From Planctomycetota bacterium (GTDB taxonomy: Bacteria > Planctomycetota > MHYJ01 > JACQXL01), in contig JACRIK010000027.1 in NCBI GenBank assembly GCA_016235865.1, positions 26,213 to 90,212 on the forward strand: DNA of 64,000 bases, given 5' to 3'. The notes beneath the pieces were generated by a model. It was not told the origin of the DNA. It saw nothing but the letters and a program-made list of their open reading frames with translations, and did no database searches. Positions within the stretch are counted from its first letter, which is position 1. The number at the start of each line of letters is the position of its first letter. The translations under genes were made by a program, and so were the position numbers. Shown piece by piece: positions 666-56,854 of this stretch.

Positions 666-987
666 AGGCCACTCAGGCCGGGGTTTTTACACAAAATCCA
701 ATTTTTCTTGTCCGTTTTTGACTTAATTGGGGGCTAATTGCGGGGCAGTTTCTACCCTGATATTTAGGACTTTATTTTCATCCGTATATATGATATAGGG
801 GCTGATTGATATATCAATGCAGAAACCACGAATGGACACGCCCCTACGGGCGGGCGTAAGCCCGAATGAACGCTAATGGGATGCAGATGAATAAAATCTG
901 GATTCCCGCTTTCGCGGGAATGACATCTTTATAGTCCTTTGTGAACTTTGTGGTCTCCGTGGTGAATGCTTATTTGTTTTCCTTGGG

Positions 988-3136: not shown

Positions 3137-3347
3137 TGGTCAATTTTGCCACAGAGACACAGAGAACGCAGAGCGACTGCGGAGTAGATACGAAGCGAAC
3201 ACGGAGAAATGCAACCACGAATGGACACAAATAAACACGAAAGAGAACTCCGCAGAGACCGTGAAGCGAACACGAATGGCACGAATAGGAGCGAATTACA
3301 CGAATAATTATTAACCACAGATGAACACAGATGGGCGCGGATGATTT
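3137..3347. repeat. Intergenic spacer between convergent genes, built from reiterated octamer-like units (ccacagag, cgcagag, cacgaatg, ccacagat, acacagat): a REP-like repeat family
   Basis: Read directly. The same words and their reverse complements recur in other spacers (4020-4050, 13585-13656, 33590-33680, 34355-34425, 46480-46545, 55530-55620, 56740-56850). Confidence 0.5.
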
Positions 3348-3992
3348 CTACTTCTTTTCCTTTACACCGGTGCACGGAGGCCAGGGATTAGTTTTGCGGT
3401 ATTCTTCAGTCGGAACTTCAGCTTGTTTGGCTTCTGCGTCGACTACAAAACGATATTCTTCAGATGACCAATAGAGATATTTATTATTCTCTTCCCACCA
3501 TTTAATAAACTTATTGTCAATTTTATTTTCGCATAATGGAGTGCCGTAGTGAAATAATTGTAACATATGATTTGCTATCCAACTATTAGGATTTTCAAAC
3601 TGTGCAATCCTGAGATATTCATCAAATTCGGATAAGTCCTTAAAGGCAAAGGCCAATGTATATATAAGAGACAGTTTCTTTCTTGAATCAGTTGTTTTTC
3701 TTATCTCCTCCTTAAGTGCCTTATGAGCTGGTTCGCCAATATCCGCGAGTGCCATGGGGAGATAACAATAACCTCGTACAAAAGGGCTCTCCTCTTTTAT
3801 TTTTGTTATTATCGGAGTTATAGCTCTACGGCCACAAGCAGCTAAAGGTTTTACATAATCACCCGATACCTCACCTCTTCTATTTAAGTGCATTTGGAAA
3901 ATATAATAATGCGGCAATAGCCACCAGCCAAGAAACATTAATCCAAACAGCAATAATGTCAGGATAAACAGGTAAATCTTTTTACGATTCAT
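3348..3992 (-). CDS. Hypothetical protein, 214 aa, with an N-terminal transmembrane anchor
   Basis: ORF with hydrophobic N-terminus IYLFILTLLLFGLMFLGWWLL. No recognisable catalytic motif. Confidence 0.45.
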   Translation of the reverse strand: MNRKKIYLFILTLLLFGLMFLGWWLLPHYYIFQMHLNRRGEVSGDYVKPLAACGRRAITPIITKIKEESPFVRGYCYLPMALADIGEPAHKALKEEIRKTTDSRKKLSLIYTLAFAFKDLSEFDEYLRIAQFENPNSWIANHMLQLFHYGTPLCENKIDNKFIKWWEENNKYLYWSSEEYRFVVDAEAKQAEVPTEEYRKTNPWPPCTGVKEKK

Positions 3993-4138
3993 AGTATAAT
4001 AGGTATCACCCCAATAGGGGTATTGTCAACTACAATCTGTATAATCTGTGTAAATACCCGGTGCGCTCCGGTAGGTGCTCCCGACCATCTCTTCGCTCAG
4101 GGGAGCGTGGAGCGTATAGCGTAGAGATTTGATACAGA

Positions 4139-6271
4139 TTACGCCAGATAGCCGTCGGTTTGAATCTTGCAGAGGTTGTGATAGACGCCCTTCTTTTCCA
4201 TCAGTTCCTGATGATTACCGGTTTCTTTTATCTCGCCTTTGTGGATGACATAGATGCGGTCAACATTCTGGATGGTTGATAACCGGTGCGCGATGATGAT
4301 AGAGGTCATTTTCTTGACCATCTTCTTAATGGCTTCCTGGATGTAATACTCGGTTTCCACGTCCACTGATGAGGTAGCTTCGTCCAGTATCAGGATAGAC
4401 GGTTCAAAGGCCATGGTCCGGGCGAATGCCAGCAACTGGCGCTGGCCGCCGGAAAGGGTCATGCCGCGCTCGCCGACCCGGCTGTCGTATTTGTTGGGCA
4501 TCTTCTCAATAAAGGTGGAAGCGAAGATATCCTCGCAGACGTCTTTTACTTTAGCCGGGGTGACGGCGCTATCCCAGAGCGAGATGTTGTCGTTGACCGT
4601 GCCGGCGAAGAGGAAGACATCCTGGAGCACGATGCCCAATCTGCGGCGCAGGTCCTGCTGGCTCATATCCTTGATGTTAATGCCGTCAATCAGAATCCGG
4701 CCTGAGTCGACATCATAGAATCGGCAGAGCAGATTGATAATTGTAGATTTGCCGCTGCCGGTCACGCCGACAAAGGCAATGCTTTCGTTCTTCTTTATCT
4801 TGAACGAGATGTTCTTCAGGACCGGCTTGCCCGGCTCGTATGAGAAGGTGACATTGTCAAACTCTATTTCGTGCCCCTGCGGGTCTTCTTTCAGTTCCCG
4901 GGGCAGGGCCGGGTTCCGGACATCAACCGGCGTATCCAGTATTTGGAAGATGCGCTCGGCCGAGGCCATGGCGCCCTGGAACATCAAATACTTATCAGCC
5001 AGGTCCTGAATCGGGCCGAAGAAGTTAATACTGTATTCCATAAACGTATAGATTACGCCGATTTCAATGACGTCGTTTAAAGCCAATCCGCCGCCGAAAT
5101 ATAAAATCAGGGCAATGACCGAGCCCCGGAGTATGGAGACCAGCGGTATAAAAGTTGACTGGTAAATCAGGGCCCGGCGGGACAGGTCATAGTGCTCATA
5201 ATTGATGCCGGAGAATTTATTGAGGGTCTTGGGCTCCTGATTGAATGACTGGATGACCTTTACGCCGGACAGGCTTTCAGCCAGATAGGCGTTTAATTGA
5301 GCCAGTTTCTTGCGCATGTCCCGGTAGGTGGTTCTTAATTTCGGTTTGAATATCATGGTTATGATGAGCAGGGGGATTACGGCGGACAGCGCAATCAACG
5401 CCAGTTTATAGTTCAGCCAAAACATGACAACTGCCAATACGACAATTATAAATATATCATTCACTACGGTAACCATGGCCGTGGAAAGGAAATCACCCAG
5501 AGCATTAACATCGTTAGTCACCCGGGTAATCAGCCGGCCGACCGGCTGTTTGTCATAAAAGCCCAGGGACATCTGCTGGAGATGCCCGAATGTTTTCATC
5601 CTGATATTAAAGATAATCTTTTGGCCCAGTTTTGACATGGAGTAATTCTGCCAGATGCTCAGGAGCAGGCAAATAACCAGATTGGCCAGGATAATCAGGG
5701 CGATAACGATAAACTGGCGCCGGTCAAACTTATCGGACGTAATCTTTAGTTGAGGGGTTTCGGCCGGGTATAGCAATTCCAGCGCATTTCGGTTGAGCCG
5801 TTTTATGACTTTCTCGCCTTGGGCTCCTTTTATCCGGCCGTAAAGATTGGCCAGGTCTTTAGCTGCCTTATCTGAACTTGGTTTTCTTATTGTGATTAAT
5901 TTTGCAATCGCGTCTTTTTGGTTTAGTAAATTATTGAGTTCCTCAACCGTATCATTCTGAATAACAACCCCATCTATCCTGAGCGCGTCACAGAGATTCT
6001 TGACGGAAAATTTGCCAGTATCAGTGGGGCTGATCGCGGGCTGGTCGGTAAATTCATTGTCAGAGAAGTCGGACACAGGCACAAGTTCATTTAACGCCAA
6101 ACCCTGTAATCTCGGGCCGAGGGCCACGGATAATATAGTCAGAACAAATGTCAGGAAGATAAGCACGATTATCTGTCCGGTAAAGGGCTTAGCAAAGACC
6201 AGGAGCCGTTTGGGCAGGCTCAGGTCATACTGCTTGTCAACAATGTCGTCTTCTTGGTGATACGCTTGCAT
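4139..6271 (-). CDS. ABC transporter, fused permease/ATPase (MsbA-like exporter), 710 aa, with a roughly 130-aa extracytoplasmic insert between TM1 and TM2
   Basis: Walker A GVTGSGKST, ABC signature LSGGQRQ, Walker B ILILDEATS, and six transmembrane helices in the N-terminal half. Confidence 0.85.
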   Translation of the reverse strand: MQAYHQEDDIVDKQYDLSLPKRLLVFAKPFTGQIIVLIFLTFVLTILSVALGPRLQGLALNELVPVSDFSDNEFTDQPAISPTDTGKFSVKNLCDALRIDGVVIQNDTVEELNNLLNQKDAIAKLITIRKPSSDKAAKDLANLYGRIKGAQGEKVIKRLNRNALELLYPAETPQLKITSDKFDRRQFIVIALIILANLVICLLLSIWQNYSMSKLGQKIIFNIRMKTFGHLQQMSLGFYDKQPVGRLITRVTNDVNALGDFLSTAMVTVVNDIFIIVVLAVVMFWLNYKLALIALSAVIPLLIITMIFKPKLRTTYRDMRKKLAQLNAYLAESLSGVKVIQSFNQEPKTLNKFSGINYEHYDLSRRALIYQSTFIPLVSILRGSVIALILYFGGGLALNDVIEIGVIYTFMEYSINFFGPIQDLADKYLMFQGAMASAERIFQILDTPVDVRNPALPRELKEDPQGHEIEFDNVTFSYEPGKPVLKNISFKIKKNESIAFVGVTGSGKSTIINLLCRFYDVDSGRILIDGINIKDMSQQDLRRRLGIVLQDVFLFAGTVNDNISLWDSAVTPAKVKDVCEDIFASTFIEKMPNKYDSRVGERGMTLSGGQRQLLAFARTMAFEPSILILDEATSSVDVETEYYIQEAIKKMVKKMTSIIIAHRLSTIQNVDRIYVIHKGEIKETGNHQELMEKKGVYHNLCKIQTDGYLA

Positions 6272-6289
6272 ATATTTTTAACAACAGGA

Positions 6290-6395
6290 TTTAGCCGATT
6301 AAGCGGAAATCGGGTAATTAACCTGCGCGCACTTCGTGTGCTCGGATTCACGCTCCGCTTAGTTCCGCTTAATCCCGTTGTCGTTAATTACGGCG
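6290..6395. repeat. Copy, in reverse orientation, of a roughly 80-bp dispersed intergenic element (ggaactaagcggagcgtgaatccgagcac ... gcgcgcaggttaatta)
   Basis: The reverse complement of 6300-6390 matches 46290-46365 over most of its length. Confidence 0.6.
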
Positions 6396-13584: not shown

Positions 13585-13656
13585 CTGAGAAATGTAACCA
13601 CAGATTACGCTGATTACACAGATTTTAATCAGAGGAATCTGTGGTTAAAAGTATTT
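13585..13656. terminator. Hairpin between convergent genes (aaccacagat ... atctgtggtt stem), a candidate bidirectional terminator built from the octamer repeat family
   Basis: Perfect 10-bp inverted repeat around a loop of about 45 nt that itself contains cacagatt units. Confidence 0.4.
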
Positions 13657-33495: not shown

Positions 33496-33680
33496 GTGTT
33501 TAAGGCCGCCGCTTTTTAGAGCCAGTTAGACCTATGGTCGTTACTGGCTCTTATCCCGATTACTCATCGGGGCAACCACTCAGCAACCTCTCCGTAAGAA
33601 AATTAGCCACAGAGTCGCAGAGTTCACAGAGAGTAATTAACTCCGTGTTCTCCGTGCCTCTGTGGCTATTTATTAGTATA

Positions 33681-33754
33681 TACGCCCGACAGGAGTCGAA
33701 CCTGTAACCTTTTGATCCGTAATCAAAAGCTCTATCCAGTTGAGCTACGGGCGC
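33681..33754 (-). tRNA. tRNA-Arg (anticodon ACG), 74 nt
   Basis: Reverse complement GCGCCCGTAGCTCAACTGGATAGAGCTTTTGATTACGGATCAAAAGGTTACAGGTTCGACTCCTGTCGGGCGT. Anticodon loop UUACGGA and T-loop GGTTCGACTCC. Confidence 0.85.
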
Positions 33755-33826: not shown

Positions 33827-34306
33827 TTAGCATTGTTTATCTGCGGCCTTCCTCTTCTTCTTAAAGAATTCCTTCATCAGCCACTGGCAGTCCCGGGCCA
33901 TCACGCCTGAGACCACCTCAATGCGGTGATTCAGCCGTTTGTCATTGACCACGTTGACAATCGAACCGCAGCCGCCGGCCTTGGAGTCATCGGCTCCATA
34001 GACCAGATGCTTGACCCGGGCATTGACCAAAGCCCCGGCGCACATGATGCACGGCTCTATGGTTACATACAGCGTCACATCGTTCAGCCGCCAGTCCTCC
34101 AGATAGGCCGCGGCCTGGGTTAGGGCAATCATCTCCGCGTGGGCCGTCGGGTCCTTCAACCGCTCGCGCTGGTTATAGGCCCGGGCGATAATCCGGTTCT
34201 TGTGCACGATAATGGCGCCGATGGGCACCTCGTCGTCATCCAGGGCCTTGACGGCCTCCTTAATCGCCTCCTTCATATAGACCGGGTGTATCTCAGATTC
34301 AAGCAT
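33827..34306 (-). CDS. tadA: tRNA-specific adenosine-34 deaminase, 159 aa
   Basis: HAEMIAL and PCIMCAGAL zinc-binding motifs of the CDA-fold TadA. Confidence 0.85.
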   Translation of the reverse strand: MLESEIHPVYMKEAIKEAVKALDDDEVPIGAIIVHKNRIIARAYNQRERLKDPTAHAEMIALTQAAAYLEDWRLNDVTLYVTIEPCIMCAGALVNARVKHLVYGADDSKAGGCGSIVNVVNDKRLNHRIEVVSGVMARDCQWLMKEFFKKKRKAADKQC

Positions 34307-34461
34307 ACGGCATATTCTCTACCAGAATCAGCCGAAGAAGGCAAGAAAAACCACAGATTACACAGATGGGCACAGATTTTCCAAAATATAATCCGTGTAA
34401 TCTGCGAAATCTGTGGTTGCTTTTCCTTGCATTTATTCCGGTTCTGTGGTATAATTATTCT

Positions 34462-36151: not shown

Positions 36152-36410
36152 GCTTATCATACCAAGAAACGGCGCCTACGATACCAAGCAGTATGGTATA
36201 TAACTATCAGAACTGGGGTTTAGTTTACCAAGAAATAGGGCTTACCATACCAAGAAGAGGCGCTTTATTTACCAAAAAGATGGGCTTATCATACCAAGAA
36301 CAGGGGCTTTAGCTATCAAGCAGTATGGTATATAACTATCAGAACCGGGGCTTAAGTTACTAAGAAATATGGCTTATTATACCAAGAGTTAGGGCCTATA
36401 ATATCAATAA
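36152..36410. repeat. Tandem repeat array with 22-bp base period (units like ataccaagaaNNgggcNtta) organised as two roughly 132-bp higher-order copies. A G/C-run tract lies at 36411-36450
   Basis: gcttatcataccaagaa recurs at 36152 and 36284 (132 = 6 x 22). The array is followed by gggcggggggttagtctaatgggggtggggcacctcccccc. Confidence 0.8.
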
Positions 36411-36539
36411 GGGCGGGGGGTTAGTCTAATGGGGGTGGGGCACCTCCCCCCTGCCAAAGTAAGTGGTTGATTTATATGGGGATGGGGAAACGGAAATAGC
36501 CGAAAATAGATATTTTGAATGGTTTCTTAAGAGGAAAAG

Positions 36540-37666: not shown

Positions 37667-39175
37667 CTATCTGAATGAAGCCGAGCAAATGGCGCAACCC
37701 TTACGGGCCTTCTTGCCCTTTGCGCTGCCCTTGGTTTCGTTTTCGTGCAGGTAGTTTATCTTACTGATGACGATACCGCTCAGGAGTTTGGGATAGAAAT
37801 CAGTTGATTTCTGGGGCATCCGTTCGCCCTTGAGCGAGACGTTCTTGACCTCGGCAATCCTGGTCGGATTGAGGATGAAGGCCATCTGGTACTTGCCTTT
37901 TGTTACGCTGTCAATGGCCTCGTCTTCGGAGCGGATGTAGTTGACGTTTTCCTCGTTGGCCACCTGTTCCTTGTTGATGCCCAGCATTTTCTCAAGTATC
38001 AGGGAGTGGAGAATGGTCACGTCCAGCCGTTTCCAGGTGGACGACTGTTTTTCGGTGATGACCTTATCCATTATCTTGTCGTTCTTCAGGGTGAGCACGA
38101 AGTATTTCTTGACGCCCTTGACAATCAGTCCGAAGGCATGGGCCCGCTCCCCGGTCATCCTGAGGTCCTCGGAGAATTCCTGGCGGCTGGCCTTTTCCTC
38201 TTTGGAGGTGTGGGTTGGATACTCGTTAATCCAGAAATACTGCTTGAGCTTGGCCAGCAGGTTATTGAAGGAGAAGTCCTTCCCCGATTTGGTCGGGACT
38301 CCGCTGTCGCTGCGAAGCCCGAAGATGAGCCGGTGGGTGGGCAGGATGGTCAGGCCTTTGTCGTCCATATTGACAAAGGTCATCATCCGGTTCTCGAATG
38401 ACTCGTTGCCGATGCATTTCAGGCCCAGGGCGCGCATCTCGTTGCGGTAATTAAGCGCGGTTTCGTAGCGGTGATGGCCGTCCGCGATGAAGACGGCCTT
38501 CTTTTTCATGGTGTTCTGGACAACCTTGATTATCCTGGGATCGGTGACCTTCCAGAGCTTGTGAATCACGCCGTCGTCGTCTTTGAGCTTGATATCAGCC
38601 GGCCGGTAGTTGGTAACCCGGGCCAGGGCCTGATTGATGACCAGTTTCGGGTCCGAGTAGAGCATGAAGATTTGTCCGGTCGAGCCGCCCACCGCGCGCA
38701 TGGTGCTTAAGCGGTCCTGCTTGGGCTTGAGGAGCGTGCGTTCGTGCGGATGGACGCCGCCCTGGCCGAATTCCACCAGCCGCATCAGTCCGATAAAGCC
38801 CTTGCGGATTTCCGGCGCGTGAGCGCCATAAGGGCGCCATGGCGCTTCGGCGCCACAGGCGGACTTGTTCTTGATGGGTGAATGGAATTCTTCGTGATAG
38901 GCATAGATGGCCCGCTTGTTGTCTTGGACCAGGATATTCTTCTTCAGCCAGGCATTGAGATAATCAGCCGCCCGGGTGTATTTGTTGTTGCTGTCGTTGT
39001 CGCCCTTGAGGTCCTTGCCCTTGGTGATGCGCACCAGGTTGTAGGGGTTCCGTTTGTAATACATGGCCTGCATCTCGGGCGTGATTTTGTCATACGGCTG
39101 GGTCAGGACCAGCCCGTAATCCTTGATTTTGGACTTGTTATAGGTGATGCCGTAAAAAGGCAGGATATCGGTCAT
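37667..39175 (-). CDS. DUF1015-like conserved hypothetical protein, 502 aa, with a Lys/Cys-rich C-terminal tail
   Basis: N-terminal LPFYGITY-type start and the known serA-serC-DUF1015 gene neighbourhood. The family call is from memory. Confidence 0.55.
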   Translation of the reverse strand: MTDILPFYGITYNKSKIKDYGLVLTQPYDKITPEMQAMYYKRNPYNLVRITKGKDLKGDNDSNNKYTRAADYLNAWLKKNILVQDNKRAIYAYHEEFHSPIKNKSACGAEAPWRPYGAHAPEIRKGFIGLMRLVEFGQGGVHPHERTLLKPKQDRLSTMRAVGGSTGQIFMLYSDPKLVINQALARVTNYRPADIKLKDDDGVIHKLWKVTDPRIIKVVQNTMKKKAVFIADGHHRYETALNYRNEMRALGLKCIGNESFENRMMTFVNMDDKGLTILPTHRLIFGLRSDSGVPTKSGKDFSFNNLLAKLKQYFWINEYPTHTSKEEKASRQEFSEDLRMTGERAHAFGLIVKGVKKYFVLTLKNDKIMDKVITEKQSSTWKRLDVTILHSLILEKMLGINKEQVANEENVNYIRSEDEAIDSVTKGKYQMAFILNPTRIAEVKNVSLKGERMPQKSTDFYPKLLSGIVISKINYLHENETKGSAKGKKARKGCAICSASFR

Positions 39176-39209
39176 TTGTTTGGTCCTCTCTTTAGAGTCC
39201 GTTGGAGTA

Positions 39210-39245
39210 GGGCGGCTTATGGACTCTTATGTCCCCCGATGTTAT
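39210..39245 (-). terminator. Hairpin cccccgatataacatcggggg downstream of the STAS gene, related in sequence to the hairpin at 36540-36578
   Basis: Shared core ccccgatgtt(r)(y)atcgggg in both hairpins. There is no clear U-tract, so terminator function is uncertain. Confidence 0.35.
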
Positions 39246-39262
39246 ATCGGGGGGCTGTCATA

Positions 39263-39622
39263 TTAATGGGACAATTCACTCAGTTCTTTAATGGCATCCT
39301 GCAGGTTATTGGTAATGCTGTAGAAGGTGGACAGCTTGAATAGTTTGAATACCTCCATGACATTGGCCTGGGGGCTGATAAAGACAATCGTGCCCTTGTG
39401 CTTTTCCAGTTCATCCAGCAGAGAGATAAACAGCCCGATGCCCGGGCTGCCCATATAGCTCACTCCGGATAAGTCTACTACGAGCTTCCATATCTTACGG
39501 TTAAACAGGGACTGGATTGCCTCGAAAAGCGTTTCCGAGGTCTCGTTATTCAATACGCCGTCCAGCGTTATCAGGCAGGACTTGCCTTCCAGTATTTTAA
39601 CGTCAATAGCCAGTTCTTGCAT
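39263..39622 (-). CDS. STAS-domain anti-sigma-factor antagonist (SpoIIAA-like), 119 aa
   Basis: VVDLSGVSYMGSPGIGLFI motif of anti-anti-sigma factors. Confidence 0.7.
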   Translation of the reverse strand: MQELAIDVKILEGKSCLITLDGVLNNETSETLFEAIQSLFNRKIWKLVVDLSGVSYMGSPGIGLFISLLDELEKHKGTIVFISPQANVMEVFKLFKLSTFYSITNNLQDAIKELSELSH

Positions 39623-39625
39623 AGG

Positions 39626-40552
39626 TTATTTCTTTGCGAAAGCGATAAGTTTATCGGCCACCGCGTCGCCCACCCGGTTCTGGCCTTCGACCGAAGAGGC
39701 GCCCAGATGGGGCGTCAGGATTATTTTCTCGCCCACCGCAATCAGCGGATTGTCCGGCGTAACCGGTTCTTTTTCATAGACATCAATAGCCGCGCCGGCA
39801 ATGGTGCCGGCCTTGAGCGCTTCGGCCAGGTCCTTTTCCACGATGATGCCGCCCCGGGCGCAGTTGAGGATATAGGCGGTCTTCTTCATCTTCTGGAATG
39901 CCTCGGCGTTAATCATGCCGGCGGTTTCCTTGGTCTTGGGCATATGGAGCGAGATATAATCGCTTTGACTGTAAACCTCATCCAGGGTTTTGACCATTTT
40001 GATGCCGGCTTTGGTGATATGTTCCGGCACCGGATTGAGATAGGGGTCGTAGCCGATGACGGACATACCCAGGGCGATGGCCCGCTTGGCCGCTTCAAAT
40101 CCGATTCGGCCCACGCCGACTAAGCCGAGCGTCTTCTGGTAAAGCTCGGTGCCTTCCAGGCGCTTCTTTTCCCATTTGCTGGTCTTCATGGTGCTGTCGG
40201 CAATGGTGATTTTCCGAGCTAAGGCGAACATCAGTCCGATGGTCAGTTCGGCCACCGAGATAGACGATGCCTCGGGTGTGTTTTCCACCTTGACATTGGC
40301 TTTCTTGGCCGCCTCGGCGTCGATATTGTCCATGCCCACCCCGCCCCGGACGATGAGTTTCAGGTTCTTGCCTTTTTCGATGACCTCTTTGGTGGCCTTG
40401 GTGGCGCTGCGGACGACCATAATGTCGTAGTCACCCACCACGTTAAGCAGATCCTGGGCCGTGATGCCGCCCTTGTCGTCCACGGTCAGTCCGCCCTGGC
40501 GCATCTTTTCCACGGCGGAACTTTCCACCTTGTCGCAGATTAAGACCTTCAT
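39626..40552 (-). CDS. serA: D-3-phosphoglycerate dehydrogenase-like D-isomer-specific 2-hydroxyacid dehydrogenase (short form without an ACT domain), 308 aa
   Basis: NAD-binding GLVGVGRIG, and catalytic RGG ... E ... H triad context (LNCARGGIIVEKDL, HLGASS). Lies in a serine-pathway neighbourhood. Confidence 0.7.
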   Translation of the reverse strand: MKVLICDKVESSAVEKMRQGGLTVDDKGGITAQDLLNVVGDYDIMVVRSATKATKEVIEKGKNLKLIVRGGVGMDNIDAEAAKKANVKVENTPEASSISVAELTIGLMFALARKITIADSTMKTSKWEKKRLEGTELYQKTLGLVGVGRIGFEAAKRAIALGMSVIGYDPYLNPVPEHITKAGIKMVKTLDEVYSQSDYISLHMPKTKETAGMINAEAFQKMKKTAYILNCARGGIIVEKDLAEALKAGTIAGAAIDVYEKEPVTPDNPLIAVGEKIILTPHLGASSVEGQNRVGDAVADKLIAFAKK

Positions 40553-40623
40553 GTGTTCTCCTCTCTAATTTCCCCCGCTACTGTCCTCCTATAATACCTG
40601 TTTTACCCGATAATATCAAGAAA

Positions 40624-43600
40624 TTACGGTATCAATTCATTAAACCGCTTATCCCGGCGCAGGTTTTCCAGGTCCGGGTCTTTTTTGGCCCAGTCCAGGC
40701 CGGTCATCCCGAATTCGATGGCCTTTTTCAGGGCCATAAATGCCTCGTCAATGTTGTTATTGCGGGACAGGGCGCAGGCGTAATTATACCACAGCCCGGA
40801 GATGTTCGGGAAACAGGCCACCGCCTTCTGGTAATACTCAACCGCCTGGGCATAGTTACCGCCTTCCAGGGCTTCCAGGCCTTTCTGGATGTATTCCAGC
40901 CCGGCTAAATCAGTCTCTTGGAATTTTACCTGGCTTTGGAGCGACTCTAGGGTAGTGATATCTGACTTTCCGCCCAGCAGGGCAGTGAAACTATCCGCTA
41001 AAATACTGTTGATGGCCAGGTTATAACCCTCTTTCCAGAGAATAACCGCGCCGGCCTTGTTTATCAGGAGCACCGAGGGCATAAGCTCCTTTTTCTTGGT
41101 GGCCACATCCGGGATAAACTGTTTGGCCGCGGCCATATCCTTATCCAGCAACATCGGTAGTGACACGCCGTTTAAACGCTCGTCATTTTCGCCCTTTTCG
41201 TCAACCAGCACGGTCCAGATTTCCACGCCGGCTGATTTGGCCTGGTTAATCGTGGACTGAATCAGCGGCAGCATCCTCAGGGACGGCTCGGATTCCAGGG
41301 TGAAGAATACCAGGAGTATATTATTATTCTTGAGCGCTGATTGTAAGTTATGCGTTTGCCCGGCCTTATCCGTCAGGGTGAAATCCGGCCGGGTCTTGAG
41401 TTCCCGTACCACCCGTTCACCGCTGCTGAGCATATCCATCGGCAAATCCAGCGGTACAGTTACCTCAATGCCTTTTTCCGAGGCGATGGTAATCGGCCGG
41501 GCGTAGATAAGCACATCGCCGTTGGCGTTGCGGTTGGCGGCGGTTAGGAGATATTCGCCCGGCGCCGCGGTCAGCCAGCCGTTGCTGACGTTGAGCTCCT
41601 CTTCCAGGAAATCCCAGCCGCCGTCGCTGAACCTGGAAATGCCGCAATTCATCTCGCTGGTCTGGTATTCAAATCCGTTCTTGGTGGTGATGATTCTTAC
41701 CCCGCCTTTCTTGACGTATTGCTTTTTGGTATCCTCGTTCAATTCCGTCTTGCCCAGATTCTTGCTGTCCATGGGATAAAGCGGCAGCCAGTTGGCGCCG
41801 TCGTAAAACTCCACCCAGTCGGACTTGATATTAGCCGGGATGCCCACAGACCGCAATGCGGCGATGGTGGACATAACCGGCCCGCCCTTGAGCGCGCGCC
41901 GGCTCTTAAAGACATCGGCCGGATTGGGCGAACAGAAAAACCGGCCGCTGGCTGAGTCCGCTATCTTGATGTTCTGTTCAATCCACTGGTTGATTCTTAA
42001 GGCCGCCTCGGTAATGGTCAGAGGTTTTTTACCTTGGTAAACCACGGGCATGAGCAGGTCATAAAGATCTTTGCGCCATTGATAAATATGCATGTAGGGC
42101 ATCCGGGGCGACAGGACATAGGAATGATAAATATCGTCGGTTACCTTTACCGGCATCTGGCTCCGGGCTAATTGGGCGTACTTGACGTGCTCCAGCAGGA
42201 TGGTCTTGTTGGTTTCGATGCTGTCCACCAGGTTCATCTGGGCCACCAGCCAGAACAGGTCTTCTTTCTGTTCCTTGGAGGCTTCATTCATAGCCGCAAC
42301 GATTTCCGTCCAGTTGCCGCCCGAGCGCTTCAGCACGCTGATGATATTGCCGGACAGCGGGCTGGACATGATTAGTTCGTTGACATCTGGGTGTTCCTCT
42401 ATTTTGAACTCCGCGCAATAATAGGCCTCCGGCGGCGCTATCGGGCAATGGTCGGAATTAATTTTCTTATATTTGGCCGGGACTTCCGGGTCAGGCCCGG
42501 CATTGGCCGCGGCCGGATTAAACGCCACATACGCCGCATGGGTGTCCGGGAAGCGCAGGGTATAATAACCGGACGGGCCACTCTTGTTTGATAACGTCAT
42601 GGTGACGGGCAGGGTGCCTGAAATAGTGGAGATAATCTGCCAGTCCAGCTGTCCGGTATTCCCGGCGCTGAGCATATACTGTCCGACGCCGGTGGTAATC
42701 GAGGCCTTGCCCTGGGCATCGGTCTTCTGCAGGGCGACCTTACGGAATACCGCCCAGTTTACCACGGACAGTGTCACCGGCGTGCCGGAAGCCGGCTGGC
42801 CGTCGGCCGCCAGAACGGTGACATCCAATTTGCAGGTCAGCGAATAATTGGACAGGACGTTCAGAATGGAGTCCTTTTTACTGGCCCGGTAGATTGTGGA
42901 CTTGTCCTCGGGCTGTCCGAACCGGGCGCAGTAAATCGCCGCGCCGGTAGCTGAGAATTCCGTGAACCAGGCCCGGCCGGCTGTGGCGGCCATGGCTGAT
43001 TGGATGGATGGTTCGCAGCTGCCCATGGAAAACCATTTATCGCCGGCCCAGATCTCGGTCCAGGCGTGGTTGTTGTCGCATTTGGGCCAGTAAGGCGTAT
43101 AGACGCTCCGAGACGGGATGCCGACCGCTCGGGTAGCGGCCATAAAGATAATCATCATCTCCTCGCAGCGTCCCTGGCTGGATAGAAGCGTGGCAAAGGG
43201 CGATTTGTCCCTGGCCTCGCTCGGCTCAAAATGGACCCGTTGCTTGGCGTATCCGGCCTGGGTGTCTTTGCGCTCGCCGCCCAGCCAGAGATTGACCTGA
43301 TAAGCCGCCTCTAACATCGTCTCGCAGTCCTTAACCAGCGGGTCTAACTGGTCGTAGAAATATTTGCGATGCGCGGTAATCGGTTCTTCAGCCATCCGGT
43401 AGGGCAGGACATAGGCCAAAAAAGTGTCCTCGGGCATATCCTTCATCCAATGGTATTTGTGTTTTATCAGATATGCGTAATGGATGTGCTCCAGCAGATA
43501 ATCGGCCTTGATGGAAATCAGGTCCGGGAAGGGCATGGTGCTGATGAGGAACGCCGCGCCTTCCAACTCCTCGCCTTTGAGCGTGGTCAAAACCTTGAGC

Positions 43601-43776
43601 AGTTCCGGGGCGTTCTCGCCGGCTTCATTCAATGCCGATTGGACATTGGCAACGTATTTGGCAGGCGCATATTTGGAGATGTCCGCGTATGGTTTTGAAC
43701 CGGATGACTTGCAGGAGGATAACATGAAAACAACCAGAAGCGCGCCTAAAACCAGTTTGGTGTGTCTGATAACCAT
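40624..43776 (-). CDS. Large lipoprotein (1050 aa) with a transglutaminase-like cysteine-protease core domain, a redoxin-like fold without CxxC, and C-terminal TPR repeats
   Basis: Lipobox LSSCKS, transglutaminase-core-like GRCEEMMIIFMAATRAVGIPSR, and C-terminal TPR (AVEYYQKAVACFPN). Confidence 0.65.
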   Translation of the reverse strand: MVIRHTKLVLGALLVVFMLSSCKSSGSKPYADISKYAPAKYVANVQSALNEAGENAPELLKVLTTLKGEELEGAAFLISTMPFPDLISIKADYLLEHIHYAYLIKHKYHWMKDMPEDTFLAYVLPYRMAEEPITAHRKYFYDQLDPLVKDCETMLEAAYQVNLWLGGERKDTQAGYAKQRVHFEPSEARDKSPFATLLSSQGRCEEMMIIFMAATRAVGIPSRSVYTPYWPKCDNNHAWTEIWAGDKWFSMGSCEPSIQSAMAATAGRAWFTEFSATGAAIYCARFGQPEDKSTIYRASKKDSILNVLSNYSLTCKLDVTVLAADGQPASGTPVTLSVVNWAVFRKVALQKTDAQGKASITTGVGQYMLSAGNTGQLDWQIISTISGTLPVTMTLSNKSGPSGYYTLRFPDTHAAYVAFNPAAANAGPDPEVPAKYKKINSDHCPIAPPEAYYCAEFKIEEHPDVNELIMSSPLSGNIISVLKRSGGNWTEIVAAMNEASKEQKEDLFWLVAQMNLVDSIETNKTILLEHVKYAQLARSQMPVKVTDDIYHSYVLSPRMPYMHIYQWRKDLYDLLMPVVYQGKKPLTITEAALRINQWIEQNIKIADSASGRFFCSPNPADVFKSRRALKGGPVMSTIAALRSVGIPANIKSDWVEFYDGANWLPLYPMDSKNLGKTELNEDTKKQYVKKGGVRIITTKNGFEYQTSEMNCGISRFSDGGWDFLEEELNVSNGWLTAAPGEYLLTAANRNANGDVLIYARPITIASEKGIEVTVPLDLPMDMLSSGERVVRELKTRPDFTLTDKAGQTHNLQSALKNNNILLVFFTLESEPSLRMLPLIQSTINQAKSAGVEIWTVLVDEKGENDERLNGVSLPMLLDKDMAAAKQFIPDVATKKKELMPSVLLINKAGAVILWKEGYNLAINSILADSFTALLGGKSDITTLESLQSQVKFQETDLAGLEYIQKGLEALEGGNYAQAVEYYQKAVACFPNISGLWYNYACALSRNNNIDEAFMALKKAIEFGMTGLDWAKKDPDLENLRRDKRFNELIP

Positions 43777-45085: not shown

Positions 45086-45136
45086 AGACAAGATTATCTC
45101 TACGCTATACGCTATACGCTCTACGCTATACGCTCT

Positions 45137-46273: not shown

Positions 46274-46282
46274 TAAATTAGA

Positions 46283-46365
46283 CAACAGGATTTAACGGAA
46301 CTAAGCGGAGCGTGAATCCGAGCACCCCGACCCGTACGGGCGGGGCGCGCAGGTTAATTATCAGA
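46283..46365. repeat. Second copy of the roughly 80-bp dispersed intergenic element (matches the reverse complement of 6300-6390), with an internal ccccgacccgtacgggcgggg palindrome
   Basis: Shared ggaactaagcggagcgtgaatccgagcac and gcgcgcaggttaatta segments. Confidence 0.6.
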
Positions 46366-46579
46366 TTAGAATTACTTGTAGTGAGTGACCCACAGGGTCC
46401 CAGTGGGAAACGAATCTATCTGTTTAATCAGTGTAATCCAGTTGTTATCATTTAATTTCTGGGGCAGTATATTTATTATTCATTCGTGTTTATTTGTGTC
46501 TATTCGTGGTTGCTGTTTTCCTTGTTTATCTGTGGTTTCAAAATCTTGACTTGTGTGGCTGGAAAGGTTAATTAGTGTT

Positions 46580-47851: not shown

Positions 47852-48137
47852 GGCGCTACGGAGGTACGTTATCGGCGCTATGGAGGCACGTCACCGGCCC
47901 TACAGAGGTGCATTCCAGGCGCTACAGAGGTGCATTCCAGGCACTACAAAGGTATATTCCAAGCATTACGAAGGTATATTCCAAGCGCTACAAAGGTATT
48001 CTCCAGGCATTACGAAGGTATGCTTCCGGCGCTACGAAGGTATGCTTCTGGCGTTACAGAGGTATGCTCCAGGCGCTACAGAGGTATGCTTCCGGCGCTA
48101 CGGAGGCACGTCACCGGCGCTATCATCGGTGTATGCT
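47852..48137. repeat. Tandem array of about 13 copies of a 22-bp unit (ggcgctacagaggtatgcttcc and variants) immediately upstream of the Type III mod gene
   Basis: Exact 22-nt period across 47852-48137. The three overlapping ORF-track entries 47777..48151, 47817..48218 and 47908..48186 are reading-frame artefacts of the repeat. Confidence 0.9.
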
Positions 48138-48223: not shown

Positions 48224-49810
48224 ATGCCATCACTAAATTTTAAGGGTAAGAATGCAGTTTGGAATCATCATTTGTCCGTTCCATACCAGATACTGGAAAA
48301 GGATAAGAAGCTGTCACTCAAAGGCAAGAATGAGGATGAGAACCTGATTATAGAGGCGGATAATCTGGTCGCGCTAAAAAGCTTGTTACCGAAATATCAG
48401 GGCCGGATAAAGTGTATTTACATAGACCCGCCATATAATACCGGCAATGAAAATTGGGTTTATAGCGATAATGTCAGCAGTCCGTTAATAAAAGAATGGC
48501 TAAAAAAAGGGCCTGTTGGTTCTGAGGATTTAACCCGTCACGACAAATGGCTTTGTATGATGACGCCTCGCCTTAAACTTCTTCGTGAATTGATGAGTGA
48601 GGATGGTGTCATATTTGTTAGTATTAACGACATTGAGAGTTCTCATGTGCGTATGCTAATGGATGATATATTTAATGGTAATTTTATTGGTATGTTAATA
48701 TGGAGGAAAAAAGAGGGTGGAGGACAGACTGACGATTACTTTGTAACGGAACATGAGTATGTTCTTGCGTATGCTAAATCGCCAGATTTTAAATGGGTTG
48801 ATGAAACAATTCCGATAGATGAGGCAAAATTCAAGAAAGAAGATAATGACGGAAGATTTACTGCGGTTAAACTTGCTAAATGGGGTTCTGGAGCACGGAA
48901 AGAAGATCGGCCAACGATGCATTTTGCAATAAAATCTCCCGACGGTAAAAATGTGTATCCAAAAGCACCAGATGGGAGTGCTGGAAGGTGGCGCGTTGGG
49001 AAATTAACAATGGATAATCTTCTGGAAAATGGATTAGTCTACTGGGAGGAAAAAAATGGCGATTGGGTGGCCTACGAGAAAATCTATTATGACGAAGAAG
49101 ACGTTAAGACAATTAAAGAACGGAGCATACTATACGAATTAGCTTCTACTGGTGATGCCACGAAGGCGCTAACTGAGTTATTTGGGAAAAAGGATATATT
49201 TGAAAATCCTAAGCCAGTTGAACTTACTAAATTCTTAATGCGATATACCACTGATAAATCTTCAATTATTCTTGATTCCTTTGCTGGTTCGGGAACAACA
49301 GCCCAGGCGGTTTTAGAGTTAAATAAAGAAGATGGTAAGGAGGGGAATAGGAAAGTCATTTTAATTCAACTGCCAGAAGAAATTAGGAAAGATAAGCCAG
49401 CATATAAGGCTGGGTATAGATATGTTCACGAGATTACAAGAGAGCGCGTTAAACGAGTGATTGAAAGAGATAAATTGGGTGTTGGCTTTTCATACATGAA
49501 TCTTGGATCACAGATTGATGCGGATTCTATCTTATCAGGCAAGTTGCCAACCTATAAAGAGTTTGCCAAGTATGTTTATTATCTGGCAACCGGAAAGACA
49601 GGCAACGAGTCAATTTACCTTATATATGAAAAGGACAAGGACAAACTAAAGAAGCTGGCAATTACGCTTGAATGGGCAGAGCAGACAAACAAGAAAGACA
49701 AGGGCAAGAAGATTATCTATGCCCCGGCCTGTTTCATAGATGAAGAATACCTGGAGAAGTTTAATATCCATTTTGTGAGTATTCCTTATAATCTCTTTGA
49801 AAAGAAATAG
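48224..49810 (+). CDS. mod: Type III restriction-modification system methyltransferase (Mod), N6-adenine, beta-class, 528 aa
   Basis: Motif IV DPPYNTGN N-terminal to motif I DSFAGSGTT. Strong Shine-Dalgarno sequence aaggag. Followed 3 nt later by the res gene. Confidence 0.85.
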   Translation: MPSLNFKGKNAVWNHHLSVPYQILEKDKKLSLKGKNEDENLIIEADNLVALKSLLPKYQGRIKCIYIDPPYNTGNENWVYSDNVSSPLIKEWLKKGPVGSEDLTRHDKWLCMMTPRLKLLRELMSEDGVIFVSINDIESSHVRMLMDDIFNGNFIGMLIWRKKEGGGQTDDYFVTEHEYVLAYAKSPDFKWVDETIPIDEAKFKKEDNDGRFTAVKLAKWGSGARKEDRPTMHFAIKSPDGKNVYPKAPDGSAGRWRVGKLTMDNLLENGLVYWEEKNGDWVAYEKIYYDEEDVKTIKERSILYELASTGDATKALTELFGKKDIFENPKPVELTKFLMRYTTDKSSIILDSFAGSGTTAQAVLELNKEDGKEGNRKVILIQLPEEIRKDKPAYKAGYRYVHEITRERVKRVIERDKLGVGFSYMNLGSQIDADSILSGKLPTYKEFAKYVYYLATGKTGNESIYLIYEKDKDKLKKLAITLEWAEQTNKKDKGKKIIYAPACFIDEEYLEKFNIHFVSIPYNLFEKK

Positions 49811-49812
49811 AT

Positions 49813-52299
49813 ATGATTCTAAAGGATTATCAGATAGAGGTCATCGATAAACTAAAAGAGTTCTATACCGAGGCGGAAAAACAAAAGAGCGAGGTAGAGA
49901 AGTCAAATGATAAGGTTTTAAGAGAATCTGTTTCTTATGTTGATACTGTTTATACTAAGCTTGACCTGCATTTTGCCGACCGGCCTAAGAACGGCTTAGG
50001 ACAATCATATACCCGTTTTTGCCTGAAGATTCCGACCGGCGGGGGCAAGACCCTATTGGCAATTGAGGCCATCCGGGAATACCAAAACCTATTCGCCAAG
50101 AAAAGAACCGGGTTAGTGGTTTGGATAGCGCACCGCGAGACCATCTACCGCCAGACCATAGAGAAACTCAGGGATAAAAATCATATCTACCGCCAGTGGC
50201 TGGACCAATGCAGCGGCAACCGGACCATTATTCTGGAAAAAGGACAGCCGTTACGGATGCAGGACACGGACAGCAATCTGGTGATTCTGATGCTGATGAT
50301 TCAGTCGGCCGGAAAGAAAACCAAGGAAAATATGAAGGTCTTTCAGGACAGCGGCAAATATATTGACTTCTTCCCGCCGGATAACCAATACGAGGAGCAT
50401 GAAAAACTATTAAGGAGGGTCCCTAATCTTGATCCTACCCCTGGTGATGTATTCGGCAAGAGAATAATAAAGACCAGTTTAGGCAACATAATCAGGATGG
50501 AGAATCCGCTTATGATTGTGGATGAATTCCATACGATGTTTTCGGATATTGCCAAAAGCACGTTGGACGGCTTAAACCCATCAATGATAATCGGACTGTC
50601 GGCTACGCCCAAAAAACGGGAGGGCATGAATATTTTTATAGAAATTACGGGCAAGGCGCTTAAGGACGAGGAGATGATTAAATTAGATATGCACCTGCAT
50701 TCGCCGACTACCAGCGGAGATTGGCATGAAATGATTAACAGCGTCAGAAAGAAAAGGGAGACGTTGGAAAAGACAGCGACTGACTTTAACCGTAATAAGG
50801 GGATATATATCAGGCCGATAGCATTGATACAGGTAGAGCGAACGGGTAAAGACCAGAGGGGAAAAGAATTTGTGCACAGCGAGGATGTGCGCGAATATCT
50901 GGTTGCGCAAGGAGTTCCGGCTCATCAAATCGCGGTAAAATCAAGCGAAATGGATGAGATTAAAGAGGAAAAACTCTTATCGCAGACAAGCGAAATCAGA
51001 TACATCATTACCAAAGAGGCGTTAAAAGAGGGCTGGGATTGTTCATTTGCCTATGTTTTAGGGGTGATACCCAATGCCAGGTCTGAATCCTCAATGACCC
51101 AGTTGGTCGGCCGGATATTACGCCAGCCGTATGCCAAGAAGACCGGGGTGGCGGAATTGGATGAAAGTTATGTCTATTTTAACCAGGGCGATACGGAAGA
51201 TGTCCTGCATAACATCCAGCGCGGATTTGTAGAGGAGGGTTTGGGCGATTTGGTCCAGAATATCAGCCGGGAATCAGGCCCGACCGGCTCGGACAAGATA
51301 AAAACAAAGATTAAGAAAGATATTCTCAATAAATATCCTGAGTCGTTATATCTGCCGGTCTGGCTGGTTAAGGAAGATAACAAATACCGGCGGTTCTCTT
51401 ATGATATTGATATCAGGCCCAGGATTAACTGGCAAAACGGGCATTACGATAAATGGCTGGAAAAAGAAATCCTGCCTTTGCTTAGCGCGAAATCATCCGC
51501 TTATGAATATATAGTTGATTTGGACAATCGGCATGAAAGGCGGGATTTGGATGAGATGGATGAGGGCGTTTTTGATATTTCATACCTAACCCGCCGGATA
51601 TCCGATGTGGTTGATAATGCCTTTATTGCCTTTGACCTGGCTCAGGAATTTATCTCGGCCGGCGATAAATACAAAGACAGGCAAAAACTGCTAATCAACA
51701 GTGGATTCATTATCAAGGAAATCGTCAAGAAGTTGTCAGATGAAAAAATCCAGCAAGAGCAATTAATATTTGATTCATTACTGAAAGGCAAGGAATTAAT
51801 GCTGGCGGTCAGCGATGACGAGCAGGTCGGGTATTCGTTGCCGAAAAATAATGAGGTCTATCCGGAATATGCCGAGACATATAAACTGAATCTTTTTGAG
51901 AAGTCGGATATAAAATCAATGAATTCGCTGGAGCGGAGAATTGCCGGTTCTATTGATAATAAGAAAAATGTAATCTGGTGGGCGCGGAATATAGCCAGCA
52001 GCAGGAAATGGTATGCCATAAGAGGTTGGAAGAGAGGCAAAATCAGGCCTGATTTTATCGTGGCCAGGAAGAATAAAAGCGATGCGTTGGAACTCGTTTA
52101 TATCATTGAGAGCAAGGGCGAACATTTAATTGGCAATCCGGATACGATTTATAAAAAGAGCGTATTTGATAAGATGAATCAGGAAACCATTGAACAGGTA
52201 ACCCTGAAACTAATCAAGTTTAAGCTGAATAAGGACTTTAGGTTTGAACTGGTTGAGCAGGGACAGGAAGATATTGAGATAAACAGATTCTTTAATTAA
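49813..52299 (+). CDS. res: Type III restriction enzyme Res subunit (SF2 helicase domain plus C-terminal PD-(D/E)xK nuclease), 828 aa
   Basis: Motif I KIPTGGGKT, motif II MIVDEFH, helicase C-domain, and C-terminal RPDF ... ELVYIIESKGEH endonuclease motif. Confidence 0.85.
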   Translation: MILKDYQIEVIDKLKEFYTEAEKQKSEVEKSNDKVLRESVSYVDTVYTKLDLHFADRPKNGLGQSYTRFCLKIPTGGGKTLLAIEAIREYQNLFAKKRTGLVVWIAHRETIYRQTIEKLRDKNHIYRQWLDQCSGNRTIILEKGQPLRMQDTDSNLVILMLMIQSAGKKTKENMKVFQDSGKYIDFFPPDNQYEEHEKLLRRVPNLDPTPGDVFGKRIIKTSLGNIIRMENPLMIVDEFHTMFSDIAKSTLDGLNPSMIIGLSATPKKREGMNIFIEITGKALKDEEMIKLDMHLHSPTTSGDWHEMINSVRKKRETLEKTATDFNRNKGIYIRPIALIQVERTGKDQRGKEFVHSEDVREYLVAQGVPAHQIAVKSSEMDEIKEEKLLSQTSEIRYIITKEALKEGWDCSFAYVLGVIPNARSESSMTQLVGRILRQPYAKKTGVAELDESYVYFNQGDTEDVLHNIQRGFVEEGLGDLVQNISRESGPTGSDKIKTKIKKDILNKYPESLYLPVWLVKEDNKYRRFSYDIDIRPRINWQNGHYDKWLEKEILPLLSAKSSAYEYIVDLDNRHERRDLDEMDEGVFDISYLTRRISDVVDNAFIAFDLAQEFISAGDKYKDRQKLLINSGFIIKEIVKKLSDEKIQQEQLIFDSLLKGKELMLAVSDDEQVGYSLPKNNEVYPEYAETYKLNLFEKSDIKSMNSLERRIAGSIDNKKNVIWWARNIASSRKWYAIRGWKRGKIRPDFIVARKNKSDALELVYIIESKGEHLIGNPDTIYKKSVFDKMNQETIEQVTLKLIKFKLNKDFRFELVEQGQEDIEINRFFN

Positions 52300-55472: not shown

Positions 55473-55633
55473 GAAATGCGGAATGCGGGGTGCGGAATTA
55501 ACCGTGCCCCGCTTCCCTTTAATTAAAACAAAATACGAACACGAATGGGACGAATAGGAACGAATGGTACGAATGAATATTATTCGTGTGATTTATCTTA
55601 ATTCGTGTGATTCGTGTTAAAAGGAGTTGATTT

Positions 55634-56728: not shown

Positions 56729-56854
56729 GGGTTAGAGGTTAAGAATTGGGACGCAGATTTCGCTGATTTACGCAGATAAATCCTGATAATCTGTAAAATC
56801 TGCGTTTATCTGCGTTCTATTTCTCGGTCTCTGCGGAGTTTATCTGTGGTTACC
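56729..56854. terminator. Convergent-gene spacer composed of cgcagat/atctgcg and atctgtgg octamer units forming nested hairpins (acgcagataaatcctgataatctgtaaaatctgcgt). Candidate bidirectional terminator
   Basis: Inverted repeats read directly. Same unit family as 3137-3347. Confidence 0.4.

Follow-up and report, generated by a model that had tools for sequence, protein, structure and literature searches.

The uvrB neighbourhood and the spacer at 3137-3347

Near one end of the 64-kb window (the whole stretch of DNA analysed here, from an uncultured Planctomycetota MAG), uvrB is followed by a spacer (3137-3347) that consists of about 20 short sequence units, all in a single orientation, grouped in four or five arm-like blocks. 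The stack extends over 3148..3344 on the plus strand and, when read directly, resolves into GCCACAGAGA-CACAGAGAA-CGCAGAG (block 1, 3148-3173), AACCACGAATGG-ACACAAATAA-ACACGAAAG (block 2, 3213-3245), ACACGAATGG-CACGAATAGG-AGCGAATTA-CACGAATAA (block 3, 3268-3308) and TAACCACAGATGA-ACACAGATGG-GCGCGGATGA (block 4, 3313-3344), with no inverted partner within the spacer. Its folding is not notably better than that of shuffled sequences (z = -2.0), which, added to the single orientation of the units, means that the spacer is not a hairpin. The original prediction, in which this spacer was thought to look like a terminator, is therefore not upheld, the region being a stack of same-orientation arms.

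Related units are found on the other side of uvrB and beyond the following gene. A forward arm at 824..890 (plus strand; AACCACGAATGG ACACG..CCGAATGA ACGCTAATGG GATGCAGATGA) contains an inserted GC-rich palindrome (838-858, with a core resembling CCCGTACGGG), which is missing from the orthologous arm of the relative L001 (see below). A like palindrome at 46320-46342 is present in one copy of the 80-nt repeat described in the next section and absent from the other, and this small GC-rich element may be a second, tiny mobile palindrome. Reverse units (937..964, minus strand; CTTTGTG AACTTTGTGG TCTCCGTGG) lie just 5' of the uvrB promoter (988-1016, TTGACA-17-TATCCT). Past gene 3348-3992, two further reverse units (4034..4050, minus strand; AATCTGTAT AATCTGTG) face the last arm of the focal spacer, although the bracket thus formed around the gene is weak and falls under the inverted-repeat threshold used below. 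They are followed by a string of 7-nt units (AGCGTGG/AGCGTAT/AGCGTAG; 4102..4126, plus strand) that is conserved in the relatives L002 and L003.

The nearest relatives as judged by UvrB are Planctomycetota/Brocadiia MAGs, and the four contigs compared (L001-L004) encode UvrB proteins 92, 86, 79 and 78% identical to that of the window, respectively. Their spacers carry the window's words (CACAGAT, CGCAGAT, CACGAAT, CACAAAG, AGCGTAT and others) at both orthologous and non-orthologous positions. Downstream of uvrB, the window and L001 share a conserved stretch over the first ~40 nt of the spacer and differ in the remainder by indels of unit blocks, with orthologous arrays changing by gain and loss of units and not by whole-element insertion. 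The slot between uvrB and the ABC transporter is occupied in the window by gene 3348-3992, which encodes a 214-aa hypothetical protein with no Pfam or NCBIfam match, in L001 by a gene for an unrelated 263-aa hypothetical protein (3514-4305) and in L002 by one for a HEAT-repeat protein (4502-5704), with L003 having no gene at this place. Word arms flank each of the slot genes, and the presence of a different arm-flanked gene in each genome indicates that the arms mark a spot of gene-content turnover.

Arrays of another kind are also present in the window. Three intergenic tandem arrays with a 22-nt period, each of about 12 copies and with its own unit sequence, are located at 400-667, 36160-36387 and 47852-48122, two of them beside palindromic blocks of G-runs and C-runs (330-385 and 36410-36455). 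A block and a 22-nt array built of other units are likewise found next to uvrB in the relatives (L002 1590-1920, L003 1-480, L004 2546-2850), the L003 unit being composed of CCATACCCCT plus ~12 variable nt, and these arrays look like a separate, lineage-wide element. Directly after the array at 47852-48122 comes an island of low GC content (38-45% vs ~51%; 48224-52299, and 52336-54183), whose genes code for an N6/N4 DNA methylase and a Type III restriction res-subunit helicase.

Words, arms and hairpins in the intergenic DNA

Six core heptamers (CACAGAT, CACGAAT, CACAGAG, CGCAGAT, CGCAGAG and CACGGAG) were counted on both strands of the window, giving 44 occurrences in the 5,991 nt of intergenic DNA versus 22 in the 58,009 nt of coding DNA (Fisher p = 1e-29), that is, a density about 20-fold greater between genes than within them. 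The same tendency is seen for single words (intergenic versus coding: CACAGAT, 12 vs 3; CACGAAT, 13 vs 4; CACAGAG, 5 vs 1), and 500 dinucleotide-preserving shuffles of the intergenic segments yielded 2.6 +/- 1.6 core heptamers, with a maximum of 8. The claim that spacers are filled with reiterated words was thus well founded, the words being far commoner between genes than composition predicts. They form short-period arrays (8-11 nt), typically of three units as in AACCACAGAT-TACACAGAT-GGGCACAGAT, and what had been taken for free-standing octamers are instead units of arms with a 9-10 nt period. A 7-nt period is confined to two minor arrays, at 4102-4126 and 45100-45134, the second consisting of five TACGCT(A/C)T units (plus strand) between lpxK and a thiamine gene. 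In total, arms occur in ~12 of the 28 window spacers longer than 25 nt.

An array together with its own inverted copy gives a hairpin, and the window has six complete ones, which measure 52-106 nt with both arms and the loop included. One of them (6280..6385) is made of another word type (ACAGGAT/GCCGAT/GCGGAA) and has a folding z of -3.7. Its right half corresponds to one copy (6307-6389) of a ~80-nt repeat (..TAATTAACCTGCGCGC..TGCTCGGATTCACGCTCCGCTTAGTTCCG..), the second, inverted copy of which lies at 46276-46365; in alignment the two are ~85-90% identical outside a variable GC-rich centre. The remaining hairpins depart much further from shuffled sequences (z from -6.2 to -9.5). That at 13596..13647 (AACCACAGAT-TACGCTGAT-TACACAGAT, loop, ..ATCTGTGGTT; z = -7.0) sits between convergent genes, whereas the CACAGAG-type hairpin at 33606..33666 (3 + 3 units; z = -8.1 / -9.5) separates tRNA-Ser(CGA) from tRNA-Arg(ACG), and the CACAGAT-type hairpin at 34349..34418 (3 + 3 units; z = -6.2 / -7.7) lies where tadA and a Ser/Thr kinase gene diverge. 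The tadA gene (tRNA adenosine-34 deaminase; 33827-34306) itself adjoins the gene for its substrate tRNA, tRNA-Arg(ACG) (33681-33754). The ACGAAT-type hairpin at 55535..55617 (4 + 4 units; z = -6.6) has on its 5' side three AATGCGG units (55475-55495), which overlap a GC-rich terminator-like stem (55485-55512). Finally, a convergent spacer harbours a CGCAGAT-type hairpin (56750-56815; z = -6.9) and a solo reverse arm (56829-56851; CTCTGCGG..ATCTGTGGTT). The spacer upstream of dapB (46281..46539) is composite, comprising an ACAGGAT-type arm (46281-46310), reverse units (46414-46446), a reverse arm of three ATTCGTG units (46482-46511) and ATCTGTGGTT (46526-46539).

Three of these hairpins (13596-13647, 34349-34418 and 56750-56815) had been recognised beforehand; they exist within about 10 nt of where they had been placed, they fold as anticipated, and the gene orientations reported around the repeats were correct. 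With the boundary marked by a slash, the hairpin ends read ..AAC/CACAGAT, ..AGC/CACAGAG, ..GGGA/CGCAGAT and ..GAA/CACGAAT, and the stems continue to pair past the outer word (AACC..GGTT, AGCC..GGCT, GGGACG..CGTTC(T)). The arms are common to the window copies but the loops differ, which gives no sign of recent copy-paste. Arm-bearing elements are distributed equally among divergent, tandem and convergent spacers, and Rfam at the gathering threshold returned no family for the repeats of the window, its hits there being two tRNAs only.

Spread and fixed architecture beyond the lineage

A scan of one genome per species for exact matches to CACAGAT-N(1-4)-CRCRGAT-N(1-4)-CRCRGAT returned at least 120 loci in more than 100 species from many bacterial phyla and some archaeal MAGs, whereas chance alone would, on a rough estimate, produce a few tens of matches in the entire collection. 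At many of the loci a forward and a reverse match stand 100-300 nt apart, which is beyond chance. Hosts among the matches listed include Acidobacteriota, Verrucomicrobiota, Planctomycetota (Brocadia and Kuenenia included), Bacteroidota (with the isolates Bacteroides hominis, Pedobacter ghigonis and a Chryseobacterium), Cyanobacteria (Scytonema HK-05, Iningainema), Proteobacteria, Nitrospirae, Chloroflexi, Patescibacteria and Treponema. Five archaeal MAGs are also among the matches listed, on short contigs for which binning errors are possible, and the scan of viral contigs gave genuine elements among its listed matches too. The matches in Streptomyces, Nocardioides and a few others look like unrelated simple repeats.

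The architecture of these arrays is remarkably fixed. Exactly three units are present in 174 of 186 arrays, the period between units is 10 nt in 276 intervals and 9 nt in 98 (together 374 of 385), and a C precedes the first word in 160 of the 186. The family was accordingly defined here by about three units with a 9-10 nt period, a C-R-C-N-R-A-N core and an outer word preceded by C. The elements of the window share the three-unit arm and the two inverted arms with complementarity past the outer word, and its arms at 13596, 33606, 34349, 3313, 3213 and 56750 fit the architecture measured on the 186 arrays. Furthermore, one gammaproteobacterial MAG (L117) carries CACAGAT, CACAGAG, CACGAAT, CGCTAAT and CGCAGAG arrays together, which is the repertoire of the window. 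A census of ORF orientation around 120 pattern loci was noisy, with divergent spacers not being avoided. In some Bacteroidota and Phycisphaerae, arms are found inside larger tandem units of 165-250 nt (L012 650-1350, L058 1-900, L099 4600-5000, L123 690-1200).

Association with GxxExxY (PDDEXK_3) genes

At three pattern-scan loci the arms are 380-560 nt apart and a single small ORF fills the "loop". This ORF encodes a GxxExxY protein (NCBIfam TIGR04256, E = 1e-42; Pfam PF13366, PDDEXK_3), and a GxxExxY gene is adjacent to arms in two more of the scan loci. An independent test was made on 80 metagenome loci fetched with GxxExxY peptide patterns alone, 72 of which had enough flanking sequence, with a gene being counted as bracketed when the 140 nt on its upstream side and the 140 nt on its downstream side gave an inverted-repeat score of at least 15. 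By this measure 54 of the 72 GxxExxY genes are bracketed, in a sample made up of the closest relatives of one GxxExxY protein itself found via the arrays, so that distant members of the family may behave differently. Shuffled flanks gave a median score of 8 and a maximum of 14; among other genes, just 1 of 76 from these loci and none of 49 from the window reached 15. An 11-fold difference in array density near versus far from GxxExxY genes was set aside in favour of this per-gene test because the "far" DNA is mostly coding.

Most of the 80 genes have ..aaCC[RC]C..GAT-gaa-C.. just upstream and its inverted counterpart, ATC..G-ttc-ATC..GGtt, just downstream. The arm word varies from locus to locus (CACAGAT, CGCAGAT, CGCCGAT, CGCAAAT, CGCTGAT, CACCGAT, CGCGAAT, and also TCGGATG, CGCAGAC, CACAGAA and ACAGGAT), and between them these words cover every word type of the window. 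In an example from a Planctomycetota MAG the arrangement is ggaaCCGCAGATacaCGCAGATgaaCGCAGAT-13 nt-ATG...TAA-4 nt-ATCTGCGttcATCTGCGtgtATCTGCGGtt, a 30-nt inverted repeat that is perfect even in its spacers. In L330 the dispersed hairpins nearby differ in words from the arms of the cassette. The link between arms and gene is a cross-genome one only, since neither a GxxExxY gene nor a fragment of one was detected in the window or in 36 kb of the relatives L001-L004 (tblastn E > 0.9); a search for decayed GxxExxY genes in the loops of ORF-less hairpins was equally negative.

The 5' arm may overlap the start of the GxxExxY ORF (L330 9985-10012, L332 7075-7102, L076 600-645), so that the repeat itself encodes some of the variable N-terminus of these proteins; for instance, gATGGACACAGAt encodes M-D-T-D and ATGAACACAGAT would give M-N-T-D. 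Many GxxExxY proteins (sample P0121-P0240) come from contigs of 0.5-3 kb, as expected for multi-copy repeats, and this suggests that cassettes or arms routinely break metagenome assemblies.

The GxxExxY protein has ~125 aa and is predicted to be an active PD-(D/E)XK nuclease, its catalytic residues being invariant. Steczkiewicz et al. (2012, PMC3424549) place PF13366 among the families of unknown function and note that it has been transferred several times between Bacteria and Archaea. In two Tepidisphaeraceae whose ValRS proteins are 81% identical, the cassette is found downstream of valS with its arms kept, and the two GxxExxY proteins are 93% identical, with codon differences of 39 synonymous versus 9 nonsynonymous. 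Such a ratio indicates that the gene is functional and maintained and that it can be stably inherited rather than behave as a fast-moving parasite, which fits a domesticated, RAYT-like role. The relative examined for an empty counterpart of the valS site carries the cassette too, and no clean pair of empty and filled sites was found. Target-site duplications were not detected beyond chance at 80 elements, a result that is uninformative for a nuclease of unspecified mechanism.

Competing explanations for the arms

The explanation that is somewhat favoured by these data is that the repeats of the window are ORF-less representatives of a hairpin family associated with GxxExxY, with a nuclease encoded elsewhere in the genome acting on the arms. 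The family itself, its architecture, its spread and the specific bracketing of GxxExxY genes are direct observations; that the nuclease would act on the arms and spread them, and that this genome encodes a GxxExxY protein, is inferred.

The alternative that survives best, although it is an unlikely one, views the arms as hairpins selected by the host for their structure, whether as terminators, as insulators or as stems that stabilise mRNA, and altered in place through duplication and slippage, GxxExxY genes being small genes wrapped in such stems, for example for RNase III processing like that of 23S rRNA intervening sequences. The hairpins are strong and several of them lie 2-15 nt from the stop codons of convergent genes, but elements are equally frequent in divergent and promoter spacers, no T-run follows any word hairpin, and a scan for consensus terminators (loops of 3-8 nt only) found sites at chance frequency (22 vs 22.7, 15 vs 16.5 and 15 vs 10.5) and none on a word hairpin. 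The canonical pattern of intrinsic terminators is therefore not fitted, and by these criteria the earlier reading of the convergent-gene hairpins as terminators is not supported. The pairing itself could be seen as evidence of structure, as it runs past the conserved words: arm pairs are 84% complementary with mismatches that are mostly transitions, and 45 of 80 elements show complementarity that extends at least 3 nt past the outer heptamer while the sequence itself varies (AAC/GTT, ATC/GAT, GGA/TCC and others), a covariation consistent with a paired stem or with concerted ends. However, scoring of the mismatches against the sense strand of GxxExxY gave an even split (61 G.T vs 59 A.C) and no trace of selection on one RNA strand, so that RNA-strand-specific selection was rejected. 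Gain and loss of units between orthologous arrays would also suit evolution in place, yet one-orientation stacks such as 3137-3347 cannot fold, and structure alone does not account for heptamers, a three-unit length and a C-boundary that recur across phyla.

It is rather improbable that the arms are binding-site arrays for a regulator or nucleoid protein, possibly a non-mobile GxxExxY, with three heptamers recruiting a multimer at gene boundaries and promoters. Such a role would make sense of the 9-10 nt phasing, of the fixed number of three units, and of cores that are conserved in sequence rather than in pairing, the two arms differing at R positions; arms also abut promoters, at 937-964 before the uvrB -35 and at 34391-34418. 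Nevertheless, a regulon explains neither the stacked arms downstream of uvrB nor the arm-flanked slot of variable genes, nor does it explain the presence of elements in viral contigs or the many GxxExxY genes each in its own arms; the invariance of the nuclease catalytic residues also speaks against this reading.

Neutral, microsatellite-like slippage of short words in unconstrained spacers, already disfavoured and here regarded as highly improbable, would produce tandem short periods and unit numbers that vary between orthologous spacers, but not the recurrence of identical words in different phyla and at non-orthologous sites, the restriction of 174 of 186 arrays to three units, a conserved outer boundary and the specific bracketing of one gene family.

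Scarcely credible, finally, is the identity originally proposed, that of true REP/BIME elements kept by a RAYT (Y1 HUH) transposase, for although the repeats are extragenic, palindromic and dispersed and a RAYT gene could lie outside the window, no GTAG/CTAC or CGTC/GACG tag adjoins any of the six hairpins, there is no single stem-loop unit of 20-40 nt, the gene found between such arms elsewhere is a PD-(D/E)XK one (PDDEXK_3, PF13366) and not Y1_Tnp, and a Pfam scan of 40 window proteins (a set that left out four ORFs at 37667-43776) revealed no Y1/HUH transposase.

A few other candidates were considered and set aside. Some outer words are similar to the DnaA-box sequence TTATCCACA, but arrays of such boxes are at odds with the inner units and with the presence of arms in archaea; CsrA GGA sites, Rho rut sites and elemental-pause phasing were likewise dropped. 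CAGAG and CGAAT resemble known Type III restriction sites, a likeness put down to coincidence despite the Type III system at 48224-52299.

Relation to known repeat systems

The favoured reading, that of a hairpin family tied to the GxxExxY nuclease, invites comparison with other dispersed repeats. The likeness to REP and RAYT that was first noticed holds as far as dispersed extragenic palindromes tied to a dedicated nuclease gene are concerned, though not for REP and RAYT themselves. As in REP/REPIN-RAYT systems, short extragenic palindromes in high copy number and in inverted pairs are dispersed between genes; as with RAYTs, the enzyme gene itself lies between inverted repeats and target sites are not duplicated. 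Inheritance of RAYTs is vertical, and the single GxxExxY cassette followed in two species is similarly stable in place and under purifying selection. The enzyme, however, is a PD-(D/E)XK nuclease and not a Y1 HUH transposase. A REP unit is a single short (20-40 bp) imperfect palindrome with an unpaired GTAG or CGTC tag at one end (PMC3733652), unlike the untagged arm, which is composed of three tandem 9-10 nt units (27-30 nt) and not of one stem-loop. REP families are, moreover, largely species- or genus-specific (PMC3733652, PMC2817692), while the core words of the GxxExxY arms are common to many phyla and some archaea.

The arrangement is also reminiscent of MITE/IS pairs, in which an "autonomous" gene between inverted ends coexists with gene-less hairpin derivatives. 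Here, in contrast, target-site duplications are lacking, the cargo is a 125-aa nuclease without a recognisable transposase domain, loops are not common to the copies and solo arms are frequent. Intergenic arrays of heptamer words shared by distant lineages are known from the cyanobacterial STRR heptamers and the TAACTGA direct repeats of Beggiatoaceae, whose function is unknown (PMC4679880). STRR and TAACTGA arrays are contiguous 7-nt tandem repeats of variable copy number and mostly direct, unlike arm heptamers, which are spaced 9-10 nt apart (the 374 of 385 intervals given above), mostly come in sets of exactly three with a defined outer boundary, and as a rule are paired with an inverted arm. 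Integron attC sites resemble the arms in being imperfect inverted repeats that fold as hairpins, bound gene cassettes and have short conserved cores; yet an attC consists of a single complete hairpin that follows each cassette, next to an intI platform, whereas in the present case half-arms flank the members of one specific gene family, and the loci inspected showed no integrase. The small ORF enclosed by a long stem of flanking inverted repeats recalls, in turn, the 23S rRNA intervening sequences. The latter are located inside rRNA genes and excised by RNase III, and the arms differ in that no rRNA context was seen for them. Full-text searches yielded no description of these repeats or of their association with GxxExxY; coverage of subscription journals and of database family notes was limited and an earlier mention is possible.

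Proposed model and implications

In the GxxExxY-associated family, an arm is usually composed of three tandem 9-10 nt units. Every unit joins a heptamer core (C-R-C-R-G-A-K, or close variants such as CACGAAT, CGCCGAT and CGCAAAT) to 2-3 nt of spacer, and the outer boundary is typically of the form ..AAC/C or ..AGC/C. Two inverted arms form an imperfect hairpin or cruciform of 27-30 bp; in many genomes they bracket the gene for the ~125-aa GxxExxY protein, and in the window the family is represented by the six complete hairpins together with solo and stacked arms. In the model proposed by analogy with REP/RAYT and MITE/IS pairs, which seems the most economical one, a GxxExxY nuclease encoded elsewhere in the genome would recognise the three phased heptamers of each arm and cut at or near the arm, close to its boundary, either on double-stranded DNA or on the extruded hairpin. 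Cutting might then drive the copying of arms, their homing into hairpin loops, or recombination and rearrangement into intergenic DNA. The resulting copies would persist at gene boundaries, possibly with a secondary role as RNA or DNA hairpins.

A broader proposition, put forward here tentatively and as one that may well prove wrong, is that GxxExxY and the triple-heptamer arms constitute a second, previously undescribed system of the "domesticated nuclease plus dispersed palindrome" type, which would parallel RAYT/REPIN with a PD-(D/E)XK fold, reach into most non-Firmicute bacterial phyla as well as phages and some archaea, and have an active part in shaping intergenic DNA and the turnover of gene cassettes at gene boundaries.

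The arms are a likely cause of assembly breaks and a source of spurious ORF calls, and they flag places where gene content is in flux, the variable slot downstream of uvrB among them. If the link with the nuclease holds, it would provide a function for GxxExxY/PF13366, a widely transferred family of thousands of members. If true, the proposed system would also explain why intergenic 7-nt words recur from Planctomycetota to Bacteroides, cyanobacteria and archaeal MAGs, and would represent a second case of a nuclease maintaining its own palindromic repeats in its hosts, mechanistically distinct from RAYT/REP.
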